IMG/VR virus record: IMGVR_UViG_3300020042_006565
Span: 1 to 55,161 of that record
DNA length: 55,161 bases
Strand: one strand, 5' to 3'
DNA from: a virus
Taxonomy: Duplodnaviria; Caudoviricetes
In this document: piece after piece, positions 26,094 through 55,161 of the stretch
How the letters are laid out: the number at the start of each line of letters is the position of its first letter
Numbering within the stretch: the stretch's first letter is position 1
Notes under the pieces: model-generated
Told to the model about the DNA's origin: nothing
What the model saw: the letters and a program-made list of their open reading frames with translations, nothing else
Databases searched by the model: none
Translations under genes and position numbers: made by a program

Positions 26094-26123
26094 GTATAGT
26101 GCTTACACGTATGCAAATGCAAC
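26094..26123 (-). promoter_or_regulatory. sigma70-like promoter TTGCAT-N18-TATACT with palindrome variant in the spacer
   Basis: Read on the minus strand upstream of the 26061 start. Operator variant GCTTACACGTATGC at 26101-26114. Confidence 0.5.
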
Positions 26124-27557
26124 GGACTTGATCTCTCTGCGGGTCGTGGCGTGCTTGGCCCCGAACGTCGCCCCATTGTCCGCGTGCAGGCAAATGTACT
26201 GGAGTGAGTCGGCGTAGTCAGACCACGGGTGGCTCTTCTCCGGCGTCTCGTCCTTGTCGCCCTTCGAGTTGATCTTGTAGCGGTACTTGCTACGCATGGC
26301 GATGATGAGCTGGGTGCAGCCTTCCTTGTCGAACAGGATCGCGGGTTTTCCGTCGATGGTCCTGGTCAGGTAGCTGTCCACTGCGGCCAGCCGGGCTGTG
26401 ATCGTGTTGGTCTTGGCCGGTTTAACGACGAACCCCTCGGCTTTGAAGATGTCAGCCACGGTGCGCTCGTCGGTCTGCGCTCTTTGGAACGCTGCCGGGT
26501 CGATGATGATGACTGACGGCTTGCCCGCGTACTTGGTCGCTATCAGCGGCTTGAGCATCTCCCGCACGAACCTCAGCGCACCCATGCTCTCGCCGGATAT
26601 GGAGTCATGCACGATCAACCGGCCCTGGTAGTCGAGCTGCGCGATGGTCGCTGTGGGGGTCAGGCCTGCATCCACCCCGATGATGATCGGTGCCGAGAGC
26701 ACGTTCAGCTTGCTCGTCGAGATGTGCGTGTCCTGCTTGAAGCTGCTGAACACCGGCTTGCCGGAGAGCGACTTGCCGAACTGCGCGTGGATGTACACGT
26801 CGATCCAGTCCTGCGTTTTCCCCTCTGCGAGGTCGTCGTAGTAAGACGCGGGCAGGAACTGCAGCCAATCTGCCTCTGTGGCCAGCCCGGATGGCTGGAA
26901 AAAGACAGCTACGTTCGACGGAGGATCTGTCAGCAGCGCCTCCCAGTGCGTGTCCATGTCCGGTGGGTTCGTCATCCCCCACAGGTGCTTGTTCGGACTG
27001 CCATCGTCGGTGACGCACCCGCCTATCGCGTGTCCTTTGTCGTCCTTGCCCCACTCGGGGCGTGGCGGCACGAGCATCTTGTCCGGGTATCTGCCCAGAC
27101 GGCCCTGGATCGCCTCGAAGATGTCCCTGTGGATCTCTCTGAACTCGTCCAGGATGGCAAAACTCGCCTGCAGCGACAGCAGCCGCCTCACGTCGTTCGA
27201 GTCATCCAGGCCCCGGAACAGAACTTCGCACTCGACGTCGTCGAACTTCAGCGTGAACTTCATGTCCACCTTGGCCATCGACCCTGCCTGGCCGTCCGGG
27301 AACCACTTCAAAAAGTCCGGGATGCTGGGGTCGGTGAGCATCTGCCGCGTGTTTCGTATCCACACCGCCCTCGATCTGCGGATACCGTCCTTGCACGCGG
27401 CCATCTGCTTGGCGTGGTACGCGATCTTCATGATCCCTGCGCTGGTCTTGGTGCTGCCGACCGGGCCGACGATCAGCGAGATGAACGAGTCCGAGCCCAG
27501 GAACCCCTGCACTGACTCTGGGGGGTTGAAGTCGATGCCGTGAGTGGTTTTGCTCAT
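26103..27557 (-). CDS. terL: terminase large subunit
   Basis: Walker A GPVGSTKT, Walker B AILDE, coupling motif MTNPP, RNase H-like nuclease motifs GVDAG and DYADSLQY. Confidence 0.9.
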   Translation of the reverse strand: MSKTTHGIDFNPPESVQGFLGSDSFISLIVGPVGSTKTSAGIMKIAYHAKQMAACKDGIRRSRAVWIRNTRQMLTDPSIPDFLKWFPDGQAGSMAKVDMKFTLKFDDVECEVLFRGLDDSNDVRRLLSLQASFAILDEFREIHRDIFEAIQGRLGRYPDKMLVPPRPEWGKDDKGHAIGGCVTDDGSPNKHLWGMTNPPDMDTHWEALLTDPPSNVAVFFQPSGLATEADWLQFLPASYYDDLAEGKTQDWIDVYIHAQFGKSLSGKPVFSSFKQDTHISTSKLNVLSAPIIIGVDAGLTPTATIAQLDYQGRLIVHDSISGESMGALRFVREMLKPLIATKYAGKPSVIIIDPAAFQRAQTDERTVADIFKAEGFVVKPAKTNTITARLAAVDSYLTRTIDGKPAILFDKEGCTQLIIAMRSKYRYKINSKGDKDETPEKSHPWSDYADSLQYICLHADNGATFGAKHATTRREIKSVAFAYV

Positions 27558-27910
27558 TCGCTGGTCGCTTCTGTGGCGGTTACTTCCGTCACTGCGCCCT
27601 CGATGACGTTCTGGTCTGCCTTGCGCTGCGTCATGTTGATGTTGACGCTGAAGGTCGGACCCCCTGCACCTGCTGACACGTTAGTTTGTTTGGGGATCGC
27701 GTCCGCGACCTTGGCCAAGAACTCCATGAACTGCACGCGAGTGGCCATCGACACTGCCGGGTCGCGCATGCGCATGTGCATCAAGTCGATATGCACTGCC
27801 AGGAGCTTCAAGTTGTAGTCCTTGAACGCCTTGGGATTGGCTACGAACTCCTCCAGCAGCGCTGGGGGCATCGCCAACTGTTTTGATACTGCGGGGTTGG
27901 TCTGGTCCAT
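27554..27910 (-). CDS. terS: putative terminase small subunit
   Basis: Overlaps the terL start (ATGA). Helical body plus a GGPTFSVNINM beta-strand tail. Confidence 0.55.
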   Translation of the reverse strand: MDQTNPAVSKQLAMPPALLEEFVANPKAFKDYNLKLLAVHIDLMHMRMRDPAVSMATRVQFMEFLAKVADAIPKQTNVSAGAGGPTFSVNINMTQRKADQNVIEGAVTEVTATEATSE

Positions 27911-27919
27911 GACCAGATA

Positions 27920-28150
27920 TTACATCAACGGTGTCGTAAATAGGGTTAAGTACGCATCGCGCTGATTACGCAGGACTATCGCTGCGTTTTGCTGTGGGGC
28001 GGTCAGGGGTAATTTGGTCGCCTGGAACAACAGCTGCACAGCGTGGGCTGTGAGCGGGTCCTTATTAATAGCAAAGATCTGCAGCCCTTCTGCTGCCAGG
28101 TCGTGCAGCTCTGCGAGCTGGGTGTTTTTTGGCTTGGGTGTCATAGCCAT
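27920..28150 (-). CDS. hypothetical protein (76 aa)
   Basis: First ORF of the leftward operon. No clear RBS. Confidence 0.4.
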   Translation of the reverse strand: MAMTPKPKNTQLAELHDLAAEGLQIFAINKDPLTAHAVQLLFQATKLPLTAPQQNAAIVLRNQRDAYLTLFTTPLM

Positions 28151-28233
28151 GAATGTAGGGGATTTTTTGGAAAAATTTTTGGGGGAGGGGTGCTTTTTGG
28201 GCGCGAAATGGGCTGGGTGTCATAGCCATGAAT
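28135..28233. repeat. 20-bp direct repeat TGGGTGTCATAGCCATGAAT (28135-28154, 28214-28233)
   Basis: Exact duplicate read directly from the sequence. Confidence 0.85.
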
Positions 28234-28339
28234 CGAAAAATTGGGCTTGAGATGTATGAACTACCCCCCTACCCCCACGCCGCCCGCCTGGTTGGTCCCA
28301 CCCCCCCACCCCGGCACCCCCCGAAAACACGGAAAACAC

Positions 28340-28910
28340 AGTCGCACCGTTTATGTAAGAACAGCGGCTGTCGTAACCCTGGTGTTCTTACTGACTTAGA
28401 TGCAAGCCGGTGCGCAACTTCCGCACCGCTACCCGAAAGGGAGAGAGCACTAGGTTACCCGTGAGGGGACTCCATCTATGGTGGAGACTAGGATTCGGGA
28501 TTGATGTTTAGGCGCAACTGTGCGGCTAACCCAGTTCCTGCATGAGTAACCCAGCGTTTGTTTAGCGCAGCGCTGGTGTAGGGGTGCAGGTTCGGCTGGG
28601 CGTGTAGCAGTGAGGTGGTTTGCAGCGCCGATAGTCAAGTCGAACCGCGTGTGAAGCGCGAAACCGAATCCTACTGGATCACAACCGTCCGGACGTGCGG
28701 GGCGCAAAGCTCTCGACAGCCCCCGGACGTGATAGGCGCGCATGGCGTGCCAACGATCACTTCACAAGCGCCTTATCAGGGGGGCGCGTAATACCCCTGC
28801 GGCTTGGCAAGCCACAAAACCCGCGAGTCGGCGCGGACAGTACCGACACAAAGTTTCAGCCAATGCCCACAGTCTATCGTGGGCATTACCGGGCGCTTTG
28901 ACCCGAAACC
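28340..28910 (+). ncRNA. candidate large structured RNA (~570 nt)
   Basis: At least 15 helices found by eye, including long-range 28489-28498/28664-28673, GNRA-capped hairpins and a 3' pseudoknot. No credible ORF. Confidence 0.7.
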
Positions 28911-28940
28911 CCCTTAATCATTCACTCAAGGAGCTACACC

Positions 28941-29471
28941 ATGTCCACCAATCAACAAGAACCCGTCGTGTTCACCATCGAAGACTTCAACAAGAGCATT
29001 GCGGTGCTCGTCAAGGGCCAAGCCAAGACTGCGAAGTCTATCGGCGCACTGCTGCTCCAGTGCCTCTACTTCTCTATCGTGGAGAAGGACGCTGGAGCGG
29101 CCAATGGGCTGATCGCCTGCCTGCGCAAGTCCACCAAGCAGGCCGGAATAATCGCGCTGCTGGAGACGCACGGCAACCTCGTGTGGCAGAAGTCCCTCAA
29201 GACCCCGCGCTTCGCTCACTTCGACGCTGACTGGGAGTGGACTCAGGAGTACGTGGACGGCATGCGCGAGGTCTGCGCTGACTGGGAGAGCTACAAGCCA
29301 GAGACTGAGAAGGAGACTGAGTTCGACGTCATCAAGGCGCTGGAGTCCCTCCAGAAGAAGGCAGTCTCTGCCAAGAGCAAGAGCCTCAACATCAAGGGCG
29401 AAGCTGCGCTGCAAGCGATCAGCTTGATCGTGGCCAAGTACAACGCGGCTGCTATCGACAAGGTTCTGTGA
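28941..29471 (+). CDS. early hypothetical protein (176 aa) between the structured RNA and the hammerhead
   Basis: AAGGAG RBS and strongly C/G-ending codons like the highly expressed phage genes. Confidence 0.85.
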   Translation: MSTNQQEPVVFTIEDFNKSIAVLVKGQAKTAKSIGALLLQCLYFSIVEKDAGAANGLIACLRKSTKQAGIIALLETHGNLVWQKSLKTPRFAHFDADWEWTQEYVDGMREVCADWESYKPETEKETEFDVIKALESLQKKAVSAKSKSLNIKGEAALQAISLIVAKYNAAAIDKVL

Positions 29472-33224: not shown

Positions 33225-34235
33225 ATGGCAACTTATACCGACCTCTTTACCATCGGCACCACGCAGTTCGCACACAACGCGATGATCGCGTATCTCGTTC
33301 TGGGCAAGCCCGGTGGCGGCAAGTCCGCTCTGGCGATGGACATCGTGCGCAGCAGCGGCGGCACTCCCGAGAACACTGTCGTGTTCACCCCGTCTCTGCG
33401 CGATCCGGTGGACGTGCTGGGCACGCCGCGTAACAACGGCGAAGTGACGGAGTGGGTTCCCCCCACAGAGTTCTACAAGCTGCGCGACGGCGTGGGCAAG
33501 TGCTTCCTCATCATCGAGGAGCTGACCGATGCGTCTATCGCCATGATGAACGCGATGTGCAGGATCGTGCTCGACAAGTACGCTGGTGATCTGGCACTCA
33601 GCCAAGAGCTGTACATCGTCGGCACGGGTAACCGCACCGAGGACAAGTCAGGTGCCAACCGCCTCAGCACCAAGCTCGGTAACCGCCTCAACGTGCAGGA
33701 GTTCGACGAGAACTTGGACGCGTGGGTCGACTGGGCACTGAACACTGGCATCGACCCTGTGCTGATCCAGTTCGTTCGCTTCAAGCCCAACCTGCTCAGC
33801 GACTTCGACCCGAACCGCCCGTTCGGTATCAACCCAACCCCCCGCCAGTGGGAGAAGGTGTCGTTCGCAGCGCCGATGCCCAACGACGGGCTGTACTTCA
33901 CCAACATCAAGGGTCTGGTCGGAGAGGGCGCAGCCGCAGAGTACGCAGCGTTCCGCAAGATCTACGCATCACTCATCAGCTTCGAGGAAGTTGTGATGAA
34001 CCCGACCGGTGTGGCGATCCCCAAGGATCTGTCGGCGCAGTACGCCATCGTCGGCAGCATCAGCCACAACACGACGCCTGCCAATGTGGACCGCGTGTCG
34101 CAGTTCGTCGAGCGCCTGCCCTCTGACTTCGGTGTGATGTTCTGGCAGGACACGATCCGCAAGACGCCTGCGGTCAAGATGACCAAGCCCTTCATCAAGT
34201 GGGCGACTGGTTCCGGCAACGTGGTGATGAACTAA
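33225..34235 (+). CDS. AAA+ ATPase (MoxR/dynein-related type)
   Basis: Walker A GKPGGGKS, Walker B LIIEE, sensor TGNR..DKSGA, NR finger and PTPRQW. Confidence 0.85.
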   Translation: MATYTDLFTIGTTQFAHNAMIAYLVLGKPGGGKSALAMDIVRSSGGTPENTVVFTPSLRDPVDVLGTPRNNGEVTEWVPPTEFYKLRDGVGKCFLIIEELTDASIAMMNAMCRIVLDKYAGDLALSQELYIVGTGNRTEDKSGANRLSTKLGNRLNVQEFDENLDAWVDWALNTGIDPVLIQFVRFKPNLLSDFDPNRPFGINPTPRQWEKVSFAAPMPNDGLYFTNIKGLVGEGAAAEYAAFRKIYASLISFEEVVMNPTGVAIPKDLSAQYAIVGSISHNTTPANVDRVSQFVERLPSDFGVMFWQDTIRKTPAVKMTKPFIKWATGSGNVVMN

Positions 34236-34245
34236 GGAGAACGCT

Positions 34246-35493
34246 ATGACCCCCGTACCCAAGAAGAAGAAAGCCAAGCTCACCCCTGAGCAGATCGCCG
34301 AGCGTATGGCAGCAGTCGAGGCCGCTCGCCCGGCAGCCCGCAAGTTGATCGACAAGTCACGTGCGTTCATCGTGCTTGACCATCCGTTCTTCGCCAGCCC
34401 CATGCTCAAGCGTCCGATGGTTGAGCGGCTCGACATCCCGACGCTGTGCGTCAACAACAGCGGCGTTATCTACTACAACCCTGTGTTCGTCGCGGGTCTC
34501 ACCGCAGCGCAGATGGTCTGGGCTACGTGCCACGAGATCATGCACTACATGTCAGGCCACGGTCTGCGCCTTGGCCAGCGCGATCCCAAGAAGTGGAACT
34601 ACGCTGGCGACATGTGGATCAACGACACGCTCAACACGTCAGGTGTCGGCGAGAAGATCGTCGGTTGTATCGACGTGCCTGGTTCGGCTGCTCGCACAGT
34701 AGAGGACATCTACGCATCGTTCCCGCCAGATGAGGAGGGAGATGAGCCTGGTGATGAGGATGGCCCAACTGGCGATCAGCCCACCACTGGTCAGGGCGAG
34801 GGTGATGGCGACGACGACCCAATCGGCGGCGACCTCGACGACGACAACGACGGCTCGACACCCGAGGAGCTGGACGCGCAGCGCAAGATCGACGTGGCCG
34901 AGGCAGCTCAGGTTGCGAAGATGAAGGGCAAGCTGCCCGGTGCGTTGCAGAAGTTCGCCGCAGAGACCATCGACAGCAAGGTGCCTTGGTACGACGTGCT
35001 GGAGCGGTACATGACCGAGCGTGTCAAGAACGACTACAGCTGGGCGCGACCCAACCGTCGCTACATGCCTGACTTCTACCTGCCGACCATCGACGGCGTG
35101 GGTGCGATGGGCGAGATCGTGGTTCAGGTGGACATCTCAGGCAGCGTGTCGAGGCAGGAGATCACGTACTACAACGGGCACATCAAGCGCATCGTCGAGC
35201 AGTGCCACCCGTCCAAGGTCCACGTCATCTACACCGACACCCGTGTGCAGAAGCACGACACGTTCGACAAGCCCGAGGAAGTGGAGATCCAGTTCCACTC
35301 CGGTGGCGGCACTGACATGCGTGCAGGGTTCGAGTACATCAGCAAGCACGGTATCGAGCCCGAGGTTGTCGTCACACTCACTGACGGGTATACACCTTGG
35401 CCCGACTCGACTGACGTGCCAGCTATCTGGTGCATCAGCAGCGACATGCGTGCGCCATGCGGCGAGAACATTCACTTCACTATGGAGGGTTGA
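34246..35493 (+). CDS. metallopeptidase + vWA domain protein (DUF2201-like)
   Basis: HEIMH (HExxH), acidic linker, MIDAS motifs DISGS, GGGTD and LTDG. Confidence 0.85.
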   Translation: MTPVPKKKKAKLTPEQIAERMAAVEAARPAARKLIDKSRAFIVLDHPFFASPMLKRPMVERLDIPTLCVNNSGVIYYNPVFVAGLTAAQMVWATCHEIMHYMSGHGLRLGQRDPKKWNYAGDMWINDTLNTSGVGEKIVGCIDVPGSAARTVEDIYASFPPDEEGDEPGDEDGPTGDQPTTGQGEGDGDDDPIGGDLDDDNDGSTPEELDAQRKIDVAEAAQVAKMKGKLPGALQKFAAETIDSKVPWYDVLERYMTERVKNDYSWARPNRRYMPDFYLPTIDGVGAMGEIVVQVDISGSVSRQEITYYNGHIKRIVEQCHPSKVHVIYTDTRVQKHDTFDKPEEVEIQFHSGGGTDMRAGFEYISKHGIEPEVVVTLTDGYTPWPDSTDVPAIWCISSDMRAPCGENIHFTMEG

Positions 35494-50790: not shown

Positions 50791-51005
50791 GTGAAGCATC
50801 GTTCTCAATGTTTCTTTCAGACGAGGAGTTGGCCGACCTGACTGGGTACAGACAAGCCGCCAAGCAAGCACAGCAACTCAAAGCGCAGCGCATCCCCTTT
50901 CACCTGAATCGCGCTGGACGACCAAAAGTGGCTAGAGCTATCCTAGAGGGTGGTCGAGCTGCTCCTGCAGCAGAAAAATCCTGGAGTCCTTCATGGGCCG
51001 CGTGA
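50787..51005 (+). CDS. xis: excisionase (DUF4224-like)
   Basis: FLS.EEL.DLTGY.....Q...L....IPF.....GRP.V. Directly upstream of the integrase, with a GGAGG RBS. Confidence 0.75.
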   Translation: MSEASFSMFLSDEELADLTGYRQAAKQAQQLKAQRIPFHLNRAGRPKVARAILEGGRAAPAAEKSWSPSWAA

Positions 51006-52069
51006 GCACCGTAAACAGGAACTTGCCGCCGCGTATGCGTGCGCGGGTTCGCGGGCGCACGACGTACTACTTCTATGACACCGGGGGTACGCCACGGCGT
51101 GAGGTGCCGCTAGGTACCGACTACATCTTGGCAGTGCAAAAGTGGGCCGAGATGCATGAGCAAGCTCCGACCGCACGCATCACGGTTGGGTGGGCAATCG
51201 CCAAGTACCTTGGCTCGCCGCAATTTGACGAAGTCAGCTTGGGCACACAGAAAGACTATCGGTTTGCTCTAGACAAGCTGCTTGTGAAATTTGGAGAGGC
51301 ACCGCTCGATCAAGTACGCCCGTCTCATGTGACGCTCTACCTTGACGTTCGCAGCAAGGAGTCCAGACACCGCGCACTGCGTGAGAAGACGGTGCTGTCA
51401 ATGATCTTCGGGTGGTGTATCGCACGCGACTATTGCAAGCTGAACCCAGTGTCGGCGATCAAGACCAAGCGACTGCCTGGACGGCGTGATGTCTACATCG
51501 AAGACGACATTCTTGAGGGGGTCTACGCAGCTGGTAGCGTGGCATTAAAAGATGCTATCGACCTCGCGTACTTCACTGGGCAGCGGCCTGCTGACGTACT
51601 CAAGATGGCCGAAACGGATCTACGCGACGAGTCGTTGTACGTCCGTCAGAACAAGACCGGCAAGCCACTGCGCATTGAGGTCGCTGGAGATCTGCAGCTG
51701 TTGGTTGATCGCATGCTTGAGCGCAAGCGACAGTTCGCAGTGAGACCGCTACAGCTGCTGGTTGACGAGTCTGGGCAACCGATGACCAAGGCTAAATTGC
51801 GCTCACGATTTGAGGCCGCACGAGCCCAGGTTCCGGGTGCTGAGGGCTTCCAATTCAGAGACCTTCGACGCAAGACCGCAAGCGATTTGCGGGACCAAGC
51901 AAGCATCGAAAAATCACAAGCTCTGCTGGGTCACTCAACGGTCCAAATGACCGAGCACTACGCAGCTGGAAAGGCCCAAAAAATTTCCGCAATTCCCAGG
52001 AGAGCAAGCAATGGCGCGGGTCCAGAGGCGGCTGATTGCGGAAACAAAAAGAGCCGCAAACCCGCATGA
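50993..52069 (+). CDS. int: tyrosine integrase
   Basis: TGQRPADV (R), QNKTG (K), FRDLRRK, LLGH and HY. Adjacent to a tRNA-derived att site. Confidence 0.95.
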   Translation: MGRVSTVNRNLPPRMRARVRGRTTYYFYDTGGTPRREVPLGTDYILAVQKWAEMHEQAPTARITVGWAIAKYLGSPQFDEVSLGTQKDYRFALDKLLVKFGEAPLDQVRPSHVTLYLDVRSKESRHRALREKTVLSMIFGWCIARDYCKLNPVSAIKTKRLPGRRDVYIEDDILEGVYAAGSVALKDAIDLAYFTGQRPADVLKMAETDLRDESLYVRQNKTGKPLRIEVAGDLQLLVDRMLERKRQFAVRPLQLLVDESGQPMTKAKLRSRFEAARAQVPGAEGFQFRDLRRKTASDLRDQASIEKSQALLGHSTVQMTEHYAAGKAQKISAIPRRASNGAGPEAADCGNKKSRKPA

Positions 52070-52315: not shown

Positions 52316-55161
52316 TCATTGCGCGAACCGACCTGCCCTATTCATATAGGCCTCGTTCTTGGTCATCAGCGGAACACCGCTGCCTGGAGCGCGATTCTTA
52401 CCTTCTCCGCGTACGTCCTTGCGCCACTGAACTTCCTGCTTGCCGGTGATCGGCTGCTCAGGGTGGTCCTCGTTGAACTCCTGGATCAGCTCGCGGACAT
52501 CGCCCATGTCACCGCTGCGAACGCCCGCCTTGTACGCCTTGCCGATACTGCCTTGGCGTTCCTTGTACGCAGCCTCGATGTTCTTGATCGCGTTGGTGCC
52601 TTCGTAGTACGCAGACTCTGCGGTAGGAGATACGCCCAGCGCCCGCAGCGTCACATCCCACGCATCCATCTCGGTGCCGGTCGGCACGTTCTTGCCATCC
52701 GTCAAACCTGCAGTGGAGTAGCGACCGGCTTTGACCACGTCAGCGACGAACTTCGGTGACAGCTTCTCGATACCCTTCGCCACATCGCCTTCGGACAGTC
52801 GTACGAATCCGTCGTAAAACTTGGCTGACATTCCTGCGGCTGGGCCGAGGGCACTGAGTACCAACTCGCCCACTTGCTCCTGGCCGGTGCGCTTATCGAA
52901 ACGAGCCATCGGGAACGGCGAGGCAATATCTCCGAGACCGATACGCTTGGACAGGTCCATGCCAAACATGGCAGGCACACCCTTGGCCAGAACATCGGAC
53001 AGTCCCTTGTCGCCCGACAAGTCATAGATCGCGTTGCGCAGTTTGGTCTCTGCATCACCTTCAGGATCATCCTCGTCGCCGAACAGGTTGGCAACGAACA
53101 ACGCGGTAGACATGAACGGCAAACCGAGCACACCTGCAGACATGCCGGAGGTGAGCGTGAAGTAGGTCAGAGCAGCGCGTGCCTCCTTGGCTTCCTTGCC
53201 CTCACCAAACGCTTTCTTGATGTTCGATCCGAACAGGTAGAGCATGCCCTGCTGGTATCTGCGGAACTGGAACACCAACTTGGCAAACGGAACCCCGCCG
53301 CCTTCTCGCATGACGCGAGCTGTGCCTTCAGAGCTGTAGTCGAACTGCGTGTTGAGCGTGGTGTCGTACGCATACTTGACCGCGTCGTCGTAGTTCATAC
53401 CGTCTTTGCGAGCCAGCCGGAAAGATGCCAGCGCAGCCGACGTGCGGTTGAGCAGCTCGATCTGCTGTGTGGTCCAACCCATGTACCGGTTGACTTGCGA
53501 GAGCAATCGGCTGGAGTCCTGCGCGAACATGCCCAGCTCAAGCTGTGCGCCATCGGCAAGAATCCCCTTGGTCATCAGCTCACGAATCGCCTTGCGGTCC
53601 TCGGTCGCAGCCAGCGTGCCCTCGCTGATGCCGGACCATGCATCGAACTGGCCGTTCTTCCAACGAGCGTCTTTCAAGATCATCAGCGCATCTCGTGAGG
53701 CTGCACTGAGTGCCTTGGTTGCCTTGGCGATCCCGAACTTGCCAGCCATCATGGGCAGCGTCACCAACCACGGCTGGGTGCTGTTGATGAGCATGAACGA
53801 AGGCGACACGCCGAGGTGGTAGACCCAAGACAGCGAAGACATCAGATCTTGCACAGGGGTCTGCTTGTACTGCATGTCCAGCGCCATGCGCTGTTCCATC
53901 TCGCGGTGGATGTGCTGCAGATCTGACTTGCCCTTGGTCTCGCGCTTCATGGCGAACATCGTGTCGGCCATCTCGCTGGCGTACATCAACCGTGACGTGA
54001 AGAACGCGCCCTGCTGCCCTGCCGCAGCGAACGCACGCAGCATGTCTGGACTCGCGCCCTCGATGCCCTTGCGGTGTGCTTCTCTGCGAAGAGCGTGCAT
54101 CTCTGGCAGAGACTGCAGAAAGATCGAGCTGATTGACTCGTTGAGTTTTCCAGCTGTGCCCTTGTCGAACTGGCTGTCGATAACCTGCGTGATGTTGTCC
54201 AGCGTGTCTTGCGACAGCGTGCGCATGCCGTCGATGTGCTGGTCAGTCAGGTCCTGGCGAGTCTGCAGACCCTTGGCCTTGAGAGCGCGTTCCGCTGCGT
54301 TGGCTTGGCCCTTGGTCTCGTGAGCGGACACCGAATACTGCGTGCCGTCTTTCTTCATCGCGTCGAGCTGCTTCTCCAACGCGGTGCGTTCTGAACCCGT
54401 GGCGTCATCCATGCGCTGGCGCAGGTCGATCAGGGCCTGAGACTCCCCGATAGCAAGGTAGCTGCCGAAACGCATCAGCGGGAAGTAAGGCCCCTTGATC
54501 TGCTTGAGCTGCTTGCTGTACTCGGCCTTCGAGGTTTCTTGCTCTTTGGCCAGCTTGGCCACAGCGTCTGTGTCCCCACGTTCCTGAGCTGCTTCGATGC
54601 GCTTGTTGTACGTGTAGTCCACGAGCTGGTTGTACGCAGCCTCGCGTTTCTTCCACGCATCGTCGAGCGACTTCTTGGCTTCTTGGTAGACCTTCTTGGC
54701 CTCGGGAGTCATCGCGTTGTACTTGGCAGCGAGCGCCGCGTGCTCTGCTTGCTGCTCTGGCTTCAGGTGCGCGTTCTCTGGCTCACCGAAGGCGCGGTCC
54801 GGGTGGATCTCTTTGAGCGTGGCACGCAGCATGACTTCGCTGAGCTGGGCCTTGATCGCGTTGGCCAGCTTGTCCCAGCGAACCGAGATGTCGTGGAACT
54901 CCATCGCCTGCTTGGTGCGCTCAACCGTCAGCGACTGCTGCAGACCGACGTACTTCTTCAGCGAGTCAATCTTCTTGCCAAACTGCTCTGCCAGCTGCGA
55001 GTTGTTGAGGAACCTGGGCGAGTTCTTCTGGAGGAAGTCGGTCACCGTCGCAAAGCTGTCTGCGACCTTCGGGTTCATGTTGCCCCGCAGCCGCTCCGCA
55101 GTGTTGCGGTACAGCGTGTTGGCGTTGTTGGCAGTTGCAGTAGAGCTGCCGATACCAAACT
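52316..55161 (-). CDS. C-terminal part of a giant virion ejection/polyvalent protein with PLxRFG motif
   Basis: PYFPLMRFG, N.TQ and QF.Y...FQFRRY motifs. The frame stays open from the track start (55078) to the right end of the window. Confidence 0.8.
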   Translation of the reverse strand, partial: FGIGSSTATANNANTLYRNTAERLRGNMNPKVADSFATVTDFLQKNSPRFLNNSQLAEQFGKKIDSLKKYVGLQQSLTVERTKQAMEFHDISVRWDKLANAIKAQLSEVMLRATLKEIHPDRAFGEPENAHLKPEQQAEHAALAAKYNAMTPEAKKVYQEAKKSLDDAWKKREAAYNQLVDYTYNKRIEAAQERGDTDAVAKLAKEQETSKAEYSKQLKQIKGPYFPLMRFGSYLAIGESQALIDLRQRMDDATGSERTALEKQLDAMKKDGTQYSVSAHETKGQANAAERALKAKGLQTRQDLTDQHIDGMRTLSQDTLDNITQVIDSQFDKGTAGKLNESISSIFLQSLPEMHALRREAHRKGIEGASPDMLRAFAAAGQQGAFFTSRLMYASEMADTMFAMKRETKGKSDLQHIHREMEQRMALDMQYKQTPVQDLMSSLSWVYHLGVSPSFMLINSTQPWLVTLPMMAGKFGIAKATKALSAASRDALMILKDARWKNGQFDAWSGISEGTLAATEDRKAIRELMTKGILADGAQLELGMFAQDSSRLLSQVNRYMGWTTQQIELLNRTSAALASFRLARKDGMNYDDAVKYAYDTTLNTQFDYSSEGTARVMREGGGVPFAKLVFQFRRYQQGMLYLFGSNIKKAFGEGKEAKEARAALTYFTLTSGMSAGVLGLPFMSTALFVANLFGDEDDPEGDAETKLRNAIYDLSGDKGLSDVLAKGVPAMFGMDLSKRIGLGDIASPFPMARFDKRTGQEQVGELVLSALGPAAGMSAKFYDGFVRLSEGDVAKGIEKLSPKFVADVVKAGRYSTAGLTDGKNVPTGTEMDAWDVTLRALGVSPTAESAYYEGTNAIKNIEAAYKERQGSIGKAYKAGVRSGDMGDVRELIQEFNEDHPEQPITGKQEVQWRKDVRGEGKNRAPGSGVPLMTKNEAYMNRAGRFAQ

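Follow-up and report, generated by a model that had tools for sequence, protein, structure and literature searches.

What occupies the long gap between the two divergent operons of an uncultured temperate phage, and in which form does it act? The question is raised by positions 28340-28910 of IMG/VR virus record IMGVR_UViG_3300020042_006565 (55,161 bp; 93%, complete-looking), which was analysed over its whole length and is called the window hereafter. In the original prediction these positions, some 570 nucleotides (nt), were seen as one large ornate non-coding RNA recalling the ROOL and GOLLD RNAs. The candidate lies within a gap of ~790 nt, from which a packaging operon runs leftward and an early operon rightward. 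We read it as a long folded untranslated 5' leader of the early operon, carried by a + strand transcript, and we give this reading about an even chance. Within it, sequence comparison shows that the 3' third has been kept by compensatory substitutions as predicted hairpins and two putative H-type pseudoknots.

The knotted domain at the 3' end

The comparison depends on a distant homologue that was reached through the first gene of the early operon (28941-29471, + strand), which encodes a protein of 176 amino acids belonging to PHROG 1448 (E 4e-08; function unknown) and has an AAGGAG ribosome site seven bases 5' of its ATG. A protein search with the product gave 18 relatives, 17 of them at 37-67% identity and mostly from Logan and ENA assemblies; their alignment led to two IMG/VR contigs, L050 and L051, identical to each other over the leader region (L051 1712-2516). 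In L051, ~800 nt of non-coding sequence precede a first-gene homologue of 46% identity, which has the same ribosome site on its 5' side and faces a terminase from another PHROG family. Along the entire leader, exact islands of 7-12 nt are colinear with L051; an alignment is obtained for just the final ~210 nt. When a covariance model of five nested helices, derived solely from window positions 28733-28910, was run against 85 sources (477 kb), it matched L051 2288-2429 at E 1.3e-4 and gave no other match below E 4. Closer variants came from Logan contigs of four public runs, compared over 28150-29150; one of them, X6 (freshwater), is a ~95% relative whose three pieces cover 486 nt of the candidate. 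The predicted elements of the domain are as follows.

28686-28729, + strand: hairpin with a 7-bp base (28686-92/28723-29; 7/7 pairs); C28690-G28725, partners in the minimum-energy fold, become U-A in X6.
28735-28751, + strand: 7-bp hairpin with a conserved AUG triloop; against L051, two double changes, one one-sided change and four identical pairs.
28768-28799, + strand: pseudoknot 1, with stem 1 at 28768-72/28783-87, stem 2 at 28777-82/28794-99 (6/6 pairs) and a third loop of 6 nt, GUAAUA.
28821-28847, + strand: pseudoknot 2, with stem 1 at 28821-25/28832-36 and stem 2 at 28827-31/28843-47 (5/5 pairs each).
28862-28887, + strand: 9-bp hairpin (28862-70/28879-87; 9/9 pairs; pair probability 0.98).
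28890-28905, + strand: short last hairpin of 4 bp, with G-C to A-U against L051 and a low pair probability (0.13).

Because MAFFT alignments of the window with L051 misplace several stems, pairs were counted by coordinate in seven helices of 28686-28905. Thirty of the 40 pairs are identical, three differ on one side (G-C to G-U or the reverse), six are double compensatory changes and one, terminal, is broken. The hairpin at 28862-28887 has in L051 a C-G pair in place of A28863-U28886, two G-U replacements and one broken terminal pair. The second stem of pseudoknot 2 shows two compensatory pairs (U-A to C-G and C-G to U-A) next to an identical first stem, and these uphold the H-type pseudoknot that had been proposed at 28821-47 at the outset. 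In pseudoknot 1, the second stem is shorter in L051 by one G-C pair, lost on both strands. Read on the opposite strand, the G-U pairs of L051 and of the window would turn into A-C mismatches, so that the + strand is the one that folds. A 10-mer across the AUG triloop is identical in window and L051. The triloop AUG itself (window 28742, L051 2297) opens a reading frame that agrees with the frame of the first gene in L051 but not in the window, and no ribosome site stands 5' of this AUG.

In the nearer relative X6, thirteen substitutions are listed, of which nine fall outside all helices of the original prediction, while the four inside make up two exact compensatory changes: U-A stands for C28690-G28725, and C-G for A28863-U28886, both members of a pair being read on a single contig piece. 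When the 13 substitutions were placed at random 200,000 times, the probability of two or more compensatory pairs was 1.35e-4. Three substitutions and one insertion of X6 at 28501-28515 lie outside all listed helices.

Pseudoknot 1, whose second stem had been listed originally as a CAGGGG/CCCCUG hairpin, sits 53 nt upstream of pseudoknot 2 and has the same design, namely an all-G+C first stem of 5-6 bp, a first loop of 1-4 nt, no spacer, a second stem of 5-6 bp and a third loop of 5-7 nt. Of the four copies in the window and L051, three have GUAAUA, AGUAAUA or UAAUA as third loop, and one has ACAGUA. A scan for knots so built found two on the + strand of the window, where shuffled sequences gave a mean of 0.13 and none of 100 reached two; in L051, it found both knots at the orthologous sites and none on the - strand. 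One knot was scored on the - strand of the window, where 16 of 100 shuffles have at least one, and another, unrelated, in the leader of the terminase-related locus L006, which is no more than chance, as 13 of 100 shuffles have at least one there; neither the leader of a second such locus, L027, nor the A1-A2 spacer of phage T7 contained any. In the variant X4, a 2-nt insertion falls within the third loop of pseudoknot 1. This pseudoknot is followed in the window by a small hairpin (28801-13) without counterpart in L051.

Carriers of the domain are few. For the first gene, tblastn against phages gave no match; searches for its relative loci gave none in IMG/VR and then, with alignments, only the L050 and L051 contigs; they gave 0 of 590 stretches in JGI metagenomes and 0 of 64 in GTDB genomes, and a terminase (TerL) search gave 0 of 52 in GTDB genomes. 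A DNA-pattern scan of IMG/VR for the knotted domain returned four loci, two on the L050 and L051 contigs and two false ones in coding sequence; a second pattern returned the same two contigs only, and one pattern run on JGI metagenomes returned 75 loci, none with the second stem. With blastn, 28200-28940 had no match among 50,697 phage records, and 28760-28940 a single 24-nt chance match. The literature searched contained nothing describing this element.

Non-coding status and the rest of the candidate

The natural variants bear on coding capacity as well as on structure. Run X1, perhaps the sample of origin, is identical to the window over 28312-29150, one freshwater run gives a 292-nt piece without differences, and a lake-water run gives two pieces of ~200 nt with one substitution each, one of them also with three gaps. 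Indels inside the stretch amount to +1 (28515), +2 (28787) and -1 (28816). The leader substitutions of X6 are without three-base periodicity, and all six of those listed in the 176-amino-acid gene are at codon position 3. Three open reading frames of the gap (two on the + strand, one on the -) have no PHROG or Pfam match. One frame of 97 amino acids on the - strand (28450-28743) was considered as a gene and rejected, having no family match and a frame that the 1-nt insertion of X6 at 28515 would break. The stretch is thus shown to be non-coding. X6 differs at 21 of 532 leader bases versus 12 of 167 coding bases, small numbers in which one coding piece is a 90% match and maybe a more distant relative; the leader is therefore no less constrained than the gene, and it is under purifying selection.

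The helices proposed originally were re-checked by scoring their pairs by coordinate and by their pair probability in the thermodynamic ensemble. The re-check took in the helices outside the central domain and the one that closes it. Ten helices and one alternative partner were fully complementary, including those of the 3' domain given above. The remaining ones, with two elements of the minimum-energy folds, are listed here.

28338-28371, + strand: 5' hairpin with eight outer pairs, from the minimum-energy fold of 28338-28488.
28343-49, + strand: alternative partner of the hairpin at 28408-28; 7/7 pairs; pair probability 0.00.
28355-63/28383-91, + strand: helix; 9/9 pairs; ensemble pair probability 0.00.
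28408-14/28422-28, + strand: helix; 7/7 pairs.
28432-28441, + strand: GAAA-tetraloop hairpin; 3/3 pairs; pair probability 0.97.
28458-67, + strand: GUGA hairpin; 3/3 pairs; pair probability 0.00.
28470-86, + strand: helix; 7/7 pairs.
28489-98/28664-73, + strand: helix closing the central domain; 10/10 pairs; mean pair probability 0.77.
28489-28673, + strand: central multi-branch domain with this 10-bp closing helix; predicted only, by folding.

The ensemble assigns zero probability to three of the proposals, namely the alternative partner, the helix 28355-63/28383-91 and the GUGA hairpin. The switch suggested for the hairpin 28408-28 is not supported by the comparison, as that hairpin falls in a 26-nt gap of L051 in the anchored alignment. 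Similarly, a switch through the helix 28730-39/28768-78 (5+5 pairs with one bulged U), which competes with the AUG hairpin and pseudoknot 1, is not supported because its orthologous pairs are not kept in L051. An 8-mer with the GAAA hairpin is colinear in L051 and also present in the leader of a further locus, L155; it is the sole comparative hint in the 5' half. As read from its sequence, L027 has a hairpin beginning with the same six bases as the 5' hairpin 28338-28371.

Over 28340-28910 (571 nt), the + strand folds at -233.7 kcal/mol against -213.9 +/- 6.5 for 100 dinucleotide shuffles (z -3.07), none of which is as good; for the - strand, z is -1.35 and eight of 100 shuffles are as good. 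This excess and the G-U pairs agree with the proposal of a structured non-coding RNA on the + strand, and folding energy by itself is not convincing. The anchored alignment with RNAalifold recovers only the 3' helices, and comparative support is limited to the 3' ~220 nt (28686-28905).

A proposed leader of the early operon and its competing explanations

On its left, the gap is bordered by an open reading frame of 76 amino acids (27920-28150, - strand) that heads the terminase operon; on its right, the domain is joined to the first early gene by a short linker. The features that frame the leader are the following.

28293-28322, + strand: C-rich conserved DNA motif, a possible promoter or operator region; its 15-mer 28293-28307 is identical in L006 and L155.
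28326-28348, + strand: conserved 5' motif with a doubled AAACAC word, the probable leader start region (blastn matches of 33 and 31 nt, in L006 and L027).
28906-28943, + strand: C/A-rich linker, Shine-Dalgarno AAGGAG (28928-33) and ATG (28941).

The knotted domain ends 22 nt 5' of the ribosome site, and the linker is poor in G (GC skew -0.31 to -0.42 over 28850-28999). In the minimum-energy fold, 28934-43 (~10 nt) are unpaired, and 28911-28915 pair at long range with 28464-28468. The gene order recurs in L051 and L155, with a packaging operon leftward, a long gap and a PHROG 1448 gene rightward. From 28340 to the start codon no terminator-like or promoter-like site occurs, so that leader and early genes are most simply read as parts of one transcript.

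Towards the 5' end, the 45 IMG/VR terminase relatives share with the window only a 33-nt stretch, 28325-28357, in L006 and L027, beyond which the leaders diverge and the first genes differ; 28326-28348 is the sole part of 28150-28940 that blastn matches in these 45 loci. An exact degenerate-pattern scan of IMG/VR for this motif returned only the L006 and L027 contigs, and the motif occurs once in the window. For the C-rich motif, a 12-nt core is common to the window and L051. Its 15-mer was found at 38 loci, of which four also have a relative of TerL, namely L155, L160 (part of the L006 contig) and, at a greater distance, L151 and L157; none has the RNA. Around it, 28260-28325 has C runs on the + strand (G on the -) and a GC skew of -0.46; this segment could be an early promoter or operator or, read leftward, a G-quadruplex-prone start of the packaging-operon transcript.

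Leaders of related phages carry a 12-mer that we take to be the boxA antitermination word of rRNA operons. When one mismatch is allowed, it matches 14 times among the 45 loci, where our own estimate for chance is about one, and eight matches are in leader position and orientation (in L005, L006, L012/L046, L018/L019 and, twice, L027).

L027 2688-2677 and 2601-2590, leader orientation: 12-mer sites, found directly after the 5' hairpin of L027.
L006 727, L005 2256, L012 358/L046 195 and L018 1753/L019 1742, leader orientation: 12-mer sites.

A resemblance to a lambdoid boxA at 28383-92 of the window is limited to a 6-nt core inside a predicted helix and was not counted. In L155, whose leader of ~420 nt is unrelated in sequence to that of the window, a hairpin followed by five U (1105-1085, - strand) lies ~40 nt before the PHROG 1448 first gene and is a possible attenuator. 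From the boxA words and this hairpin with its U run, early leaders in the phage group look like control sites for elongation or survival, and since the window leader is densely folded and without boxA, a role in cis is favoured.

On this reading, the leader would be made as part of the early messenger and not as a separate RNA, and its knotted domain would act in cis on that messenger. The likeliest action would be a mechanical or structural block shielding leader and message from 5'-end-dependent RNase E attack and from Rho; the domain may also set the translation of the first gene. Related phages would appear to meet the same need differently, through the presumed boxA word. We only infer such a protective role for leader and message. 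More specifically, and doubtfully, the tandem knots may do for a bacterial virus what exonuclease-resistant RNAs do for eukaryotic ones, as mechanical roadblocks at the end of the long early leader. They would then stop RNase E scanning from the 5' end, a 5' exonuclease, or Rho, and so protect the messenger without Nus factors, a problem that boxA-carrying sister phages would solve in the classical way.

Several observations weigh against a protective early leader and must be set beside it. The 3' domain is carried by two lineages only (the window with its near-identical variants, and L050/L051), so that the covariation depends on few events. Covariance models of the minimum-energy folds 28338-28488 and 28489-28673 miss the L051 leader, the whole of which folds at just z -1.11 (20 shuffles), and in sliding z-scores over 150 nt, parts of the flanking coding sequence equal the candidate. 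The X6 pieces have a depth of 2.3-4.2, with some differences near contig ends left unlisted, and X6 alters U28730, which pairs with A28759 in the minimum-energy fold, with no change listed at the partner. None of the nine sequencing runs listed is from RNA, no sigma-70-type promoter is predicted in 27800-29100, and none of the four window matches to the 12-mer at up to two mismatches falls in 28150-28940, the window total being at chance. Finally, known frameshift pseudoknots are reported not to have stopped the exonuclease Xrn1 (PMC10321173).

Among the other explanations, a translational operator survives best, and we still hold it to be unlikely. By analogy with the T4 gp32 system, the knotted domain would bind a protein, most simply the first-gene product, which would feed back on its own synthesis. 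The 3' domain and the PHROG 1448 gene do travel together in the window and L051, and in L006 and L027, terminase relatives whose first gene differs, the leader differs too, but L155 has a PHROG 1448 first gene behind a different leader that the 28733-28910 model does not match. The AlphaFold model of the product (pLDDT, the predicted local distance difference test, 85) holds a helix plus beta-hairpin unit with a weak winged-helix likeness; its matches to nucleic-acid binders in the PDB are, however, limited to weak rows of MarR-type winged-helix proteins (E at least 0.086, template-modelling score about 0.25). Its 19 BFVD matches at E<=1e-3 are all uncharacterised podophage proteins, comparison with the ESM Atlas gave no named family, and the product is no firm clue to the function of the leader. 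Moreover, Shine-Dalgarno and start codon are unpaired with 28686-28905 in the minimum-energy fold, with just a 3-bp local hairpin nearby.

The idea from which the work started, a free-standing RNA of ~570 nt released by processing or termination and acting in trans as proposed for ROOL and GOLLD RNAs, comes next, and we regard it as rather improbable. Its size, phage location and many helices, the energy excess of the whole region on the + strand and the islands colinear with L051 over its full length speak for it, as does the fact that no Rfam class fits. With Rfam 15, there were no matches at gathering score over the whole window, which bears out the original statement that no known class could be assigned. 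At E<=10, the single row in 28100-29000 is a 10-bit chance match to an internal ribosome entry site model outside the candidate, and six related loci gave none at E<=1. The covariance models of ROOL, GOLLD, RNase P, group I and II introns, OLE, HEARO and raiA had no match, the library being assumed to hold those of ROOL and GOLLD; ARAGORN found no tRNA or transfer-messenger RNA gene in the window, and Rfam no transfer-messenger RNA. This lack of a match to any family model also counts against the free-standing RNA, as do the lack of a terminator-like site before the ribosome site and the fact that, in both lineages, the conserved domain borders directly on the ribosome site of a gene from one and the same family. 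Covariation among homologues was borne out for the 3' third, and the 5' and central folds were not recovered in L051; because the models of those parts miss the homologue, a single ornate fold of 570 nt remains a prediction, and the original picture of a ROOL/GOLLD-like whole is not supported in that form, comparative support being confined to the 3' ~220 nt.

It is very unlikely that the stretch acts as DNA, as a replication origin, packaging site or array of promoters and operators, with hairpins that are incidental or form cruciforms. A divergent control region adjoining packaging genes, with conserved C-rich DNA motifs just upstream, would suit such an element, and phage T7 has its annotated promoters A1, A2 and A3 at 498, 626 and 750, before the first early gene at 925. 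Nevertheless, G-U replaces G-C in L051, which keeps RNA pairing but not DNA pairing, the pseudoknot stems covary, and no iteron-type repeats or promoter-like sites were seen in the candidate. Least probable is a pair of ligand-sensing pseudoknots (tandem riboswitches), for although two similar compact knots stand in series and three of the four copies nearly agree in their third loop, conservation does not extend to the first loop (4 versus 1 nt in one knot, 1 versus 2 nt in the other), no Rfam entry, riboswitches such as preQ1, SAM-II/V, fluoride and guanidine-III included, matches 28100-29000 at E<=10, no terminator or alternative sequestering the ribosome site was found, and the downstream gene suggests no metabolite.

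In the surrounding genome, the capsid, tail and packaging module is on the - strand, with an SU10-type portal and large terminase; TerL is at 26103-27557, and the leftward packaging operon also holds the 76-amino-acid frame, a frame of 118 amino acids and the portal. By terminase, the closest cultured phage has just 39% identity. An integrase gene (50993-52069) is on the + strand together with those for DNA polymerase, helicase and primase. The early operon also contains a MoxR-type ATPase and VWA/DUF2201 pair (33225-35493, + strand), and at the contig end, a DarB-like antirestriction protein of 920 amino acids is encoded (52316-55078, - strand). Left of the leader, a terminator-like hairpin followed by a T run (28106-28130, + strand) lies inside and antisense to the 76-amino-acid frame. 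The start codon of that frame is included in an exact 18-nt direct repeat (28137-28154/28216-28233), and none of 100 shuffles gives two copies. The X1 and X6 contigs join across this repeat as one copy, without the 61 intervening bases (79 from copy to copy), which makes the segment look like a variable duplication.

Phages are known to control early genes through structured 5' leaders, and this one is without an Rfam 15 match. Its two knots of ~30 nt, with natural compensatory support, would make a small and defined test object for mechanical RNA blocks, for which the related phages with boxA-type leaders are natural comparisons. Rarity limits the weight of the element, as IMG/VR yielded only two lineages and the one pattern run on JGI metagenomes yielded none.

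Comparison with known RNAs

The element shares with ROOL and GOLLD RNAs a length of several hundred nucleotides, many helices and a location in phage DNA; it differs from them in having no Rfam match, a structure demonstrable in the 3' third only, and continuity with a messenger. With boxA/Nus antitermination leaders, it has in common a long untranslated leader heading a long operon, and relatives that carry the 12-mer there, whereas the window leader has no copy at up to two mismatches. Phage T4 gp32 feeds back on its own translation through a leader pseudoknot, and the T4 gene 32 operator is likewise a pseudoknot in a phage 5' leader followed by an unstructured stretch into the ribosome site, but the window has two knots and four hairpins, and its downstream protein is not a known single-strand-binding protein.

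The closest designs are found among compact H-type knots of eukaryotic viruses; such knots are reported to resist RNA-tracking enzymes (PMC10321173). There, the plant-virus coremin exonuclease-resistant RNA (xrRNA-C) is defined by a hairpin loop YGAD or YGNNAD (4 or 6 nt), a spacer about ten nt long that contains CUAC, and a second hairpin immediately 3' of it (PMC10321173). The window knots were rejected as members on their stem-1 loops, which have 6 nt starting with A in pseudoknot 2 and 10 nt in pseudoknot 1. Their third loops contain no CUAC. A stimulator of -1 frameshifting was rejected too, because the stretch has no conserved frame, +2 and -1 variant indels, and no slippery heptamer seen when the sequence was read. 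Compared with luteovirus frameshift knots and coremin (PMC10321173), the window knots stand in an untranslated bacterial-virus leader and not in an open reading frame or in the 3' untranslated region of a eukaryotic virus, their second stems have 5-6 pairs instead of three, and they have neither the coremin loop consensus nor, in the third loops, CUAC, nor an upstream slippery site. Yet they resemble the luteovirus knots and the Watson-Crick variant of coremin in several ways: stem 1 is short and rich in G+C, the first loop has 1-4 nt, no spacer parts the stems, the third loop is purine-rich with 5-7 nt, and the whole measures roughly 27-32 nt (PMC10321173).

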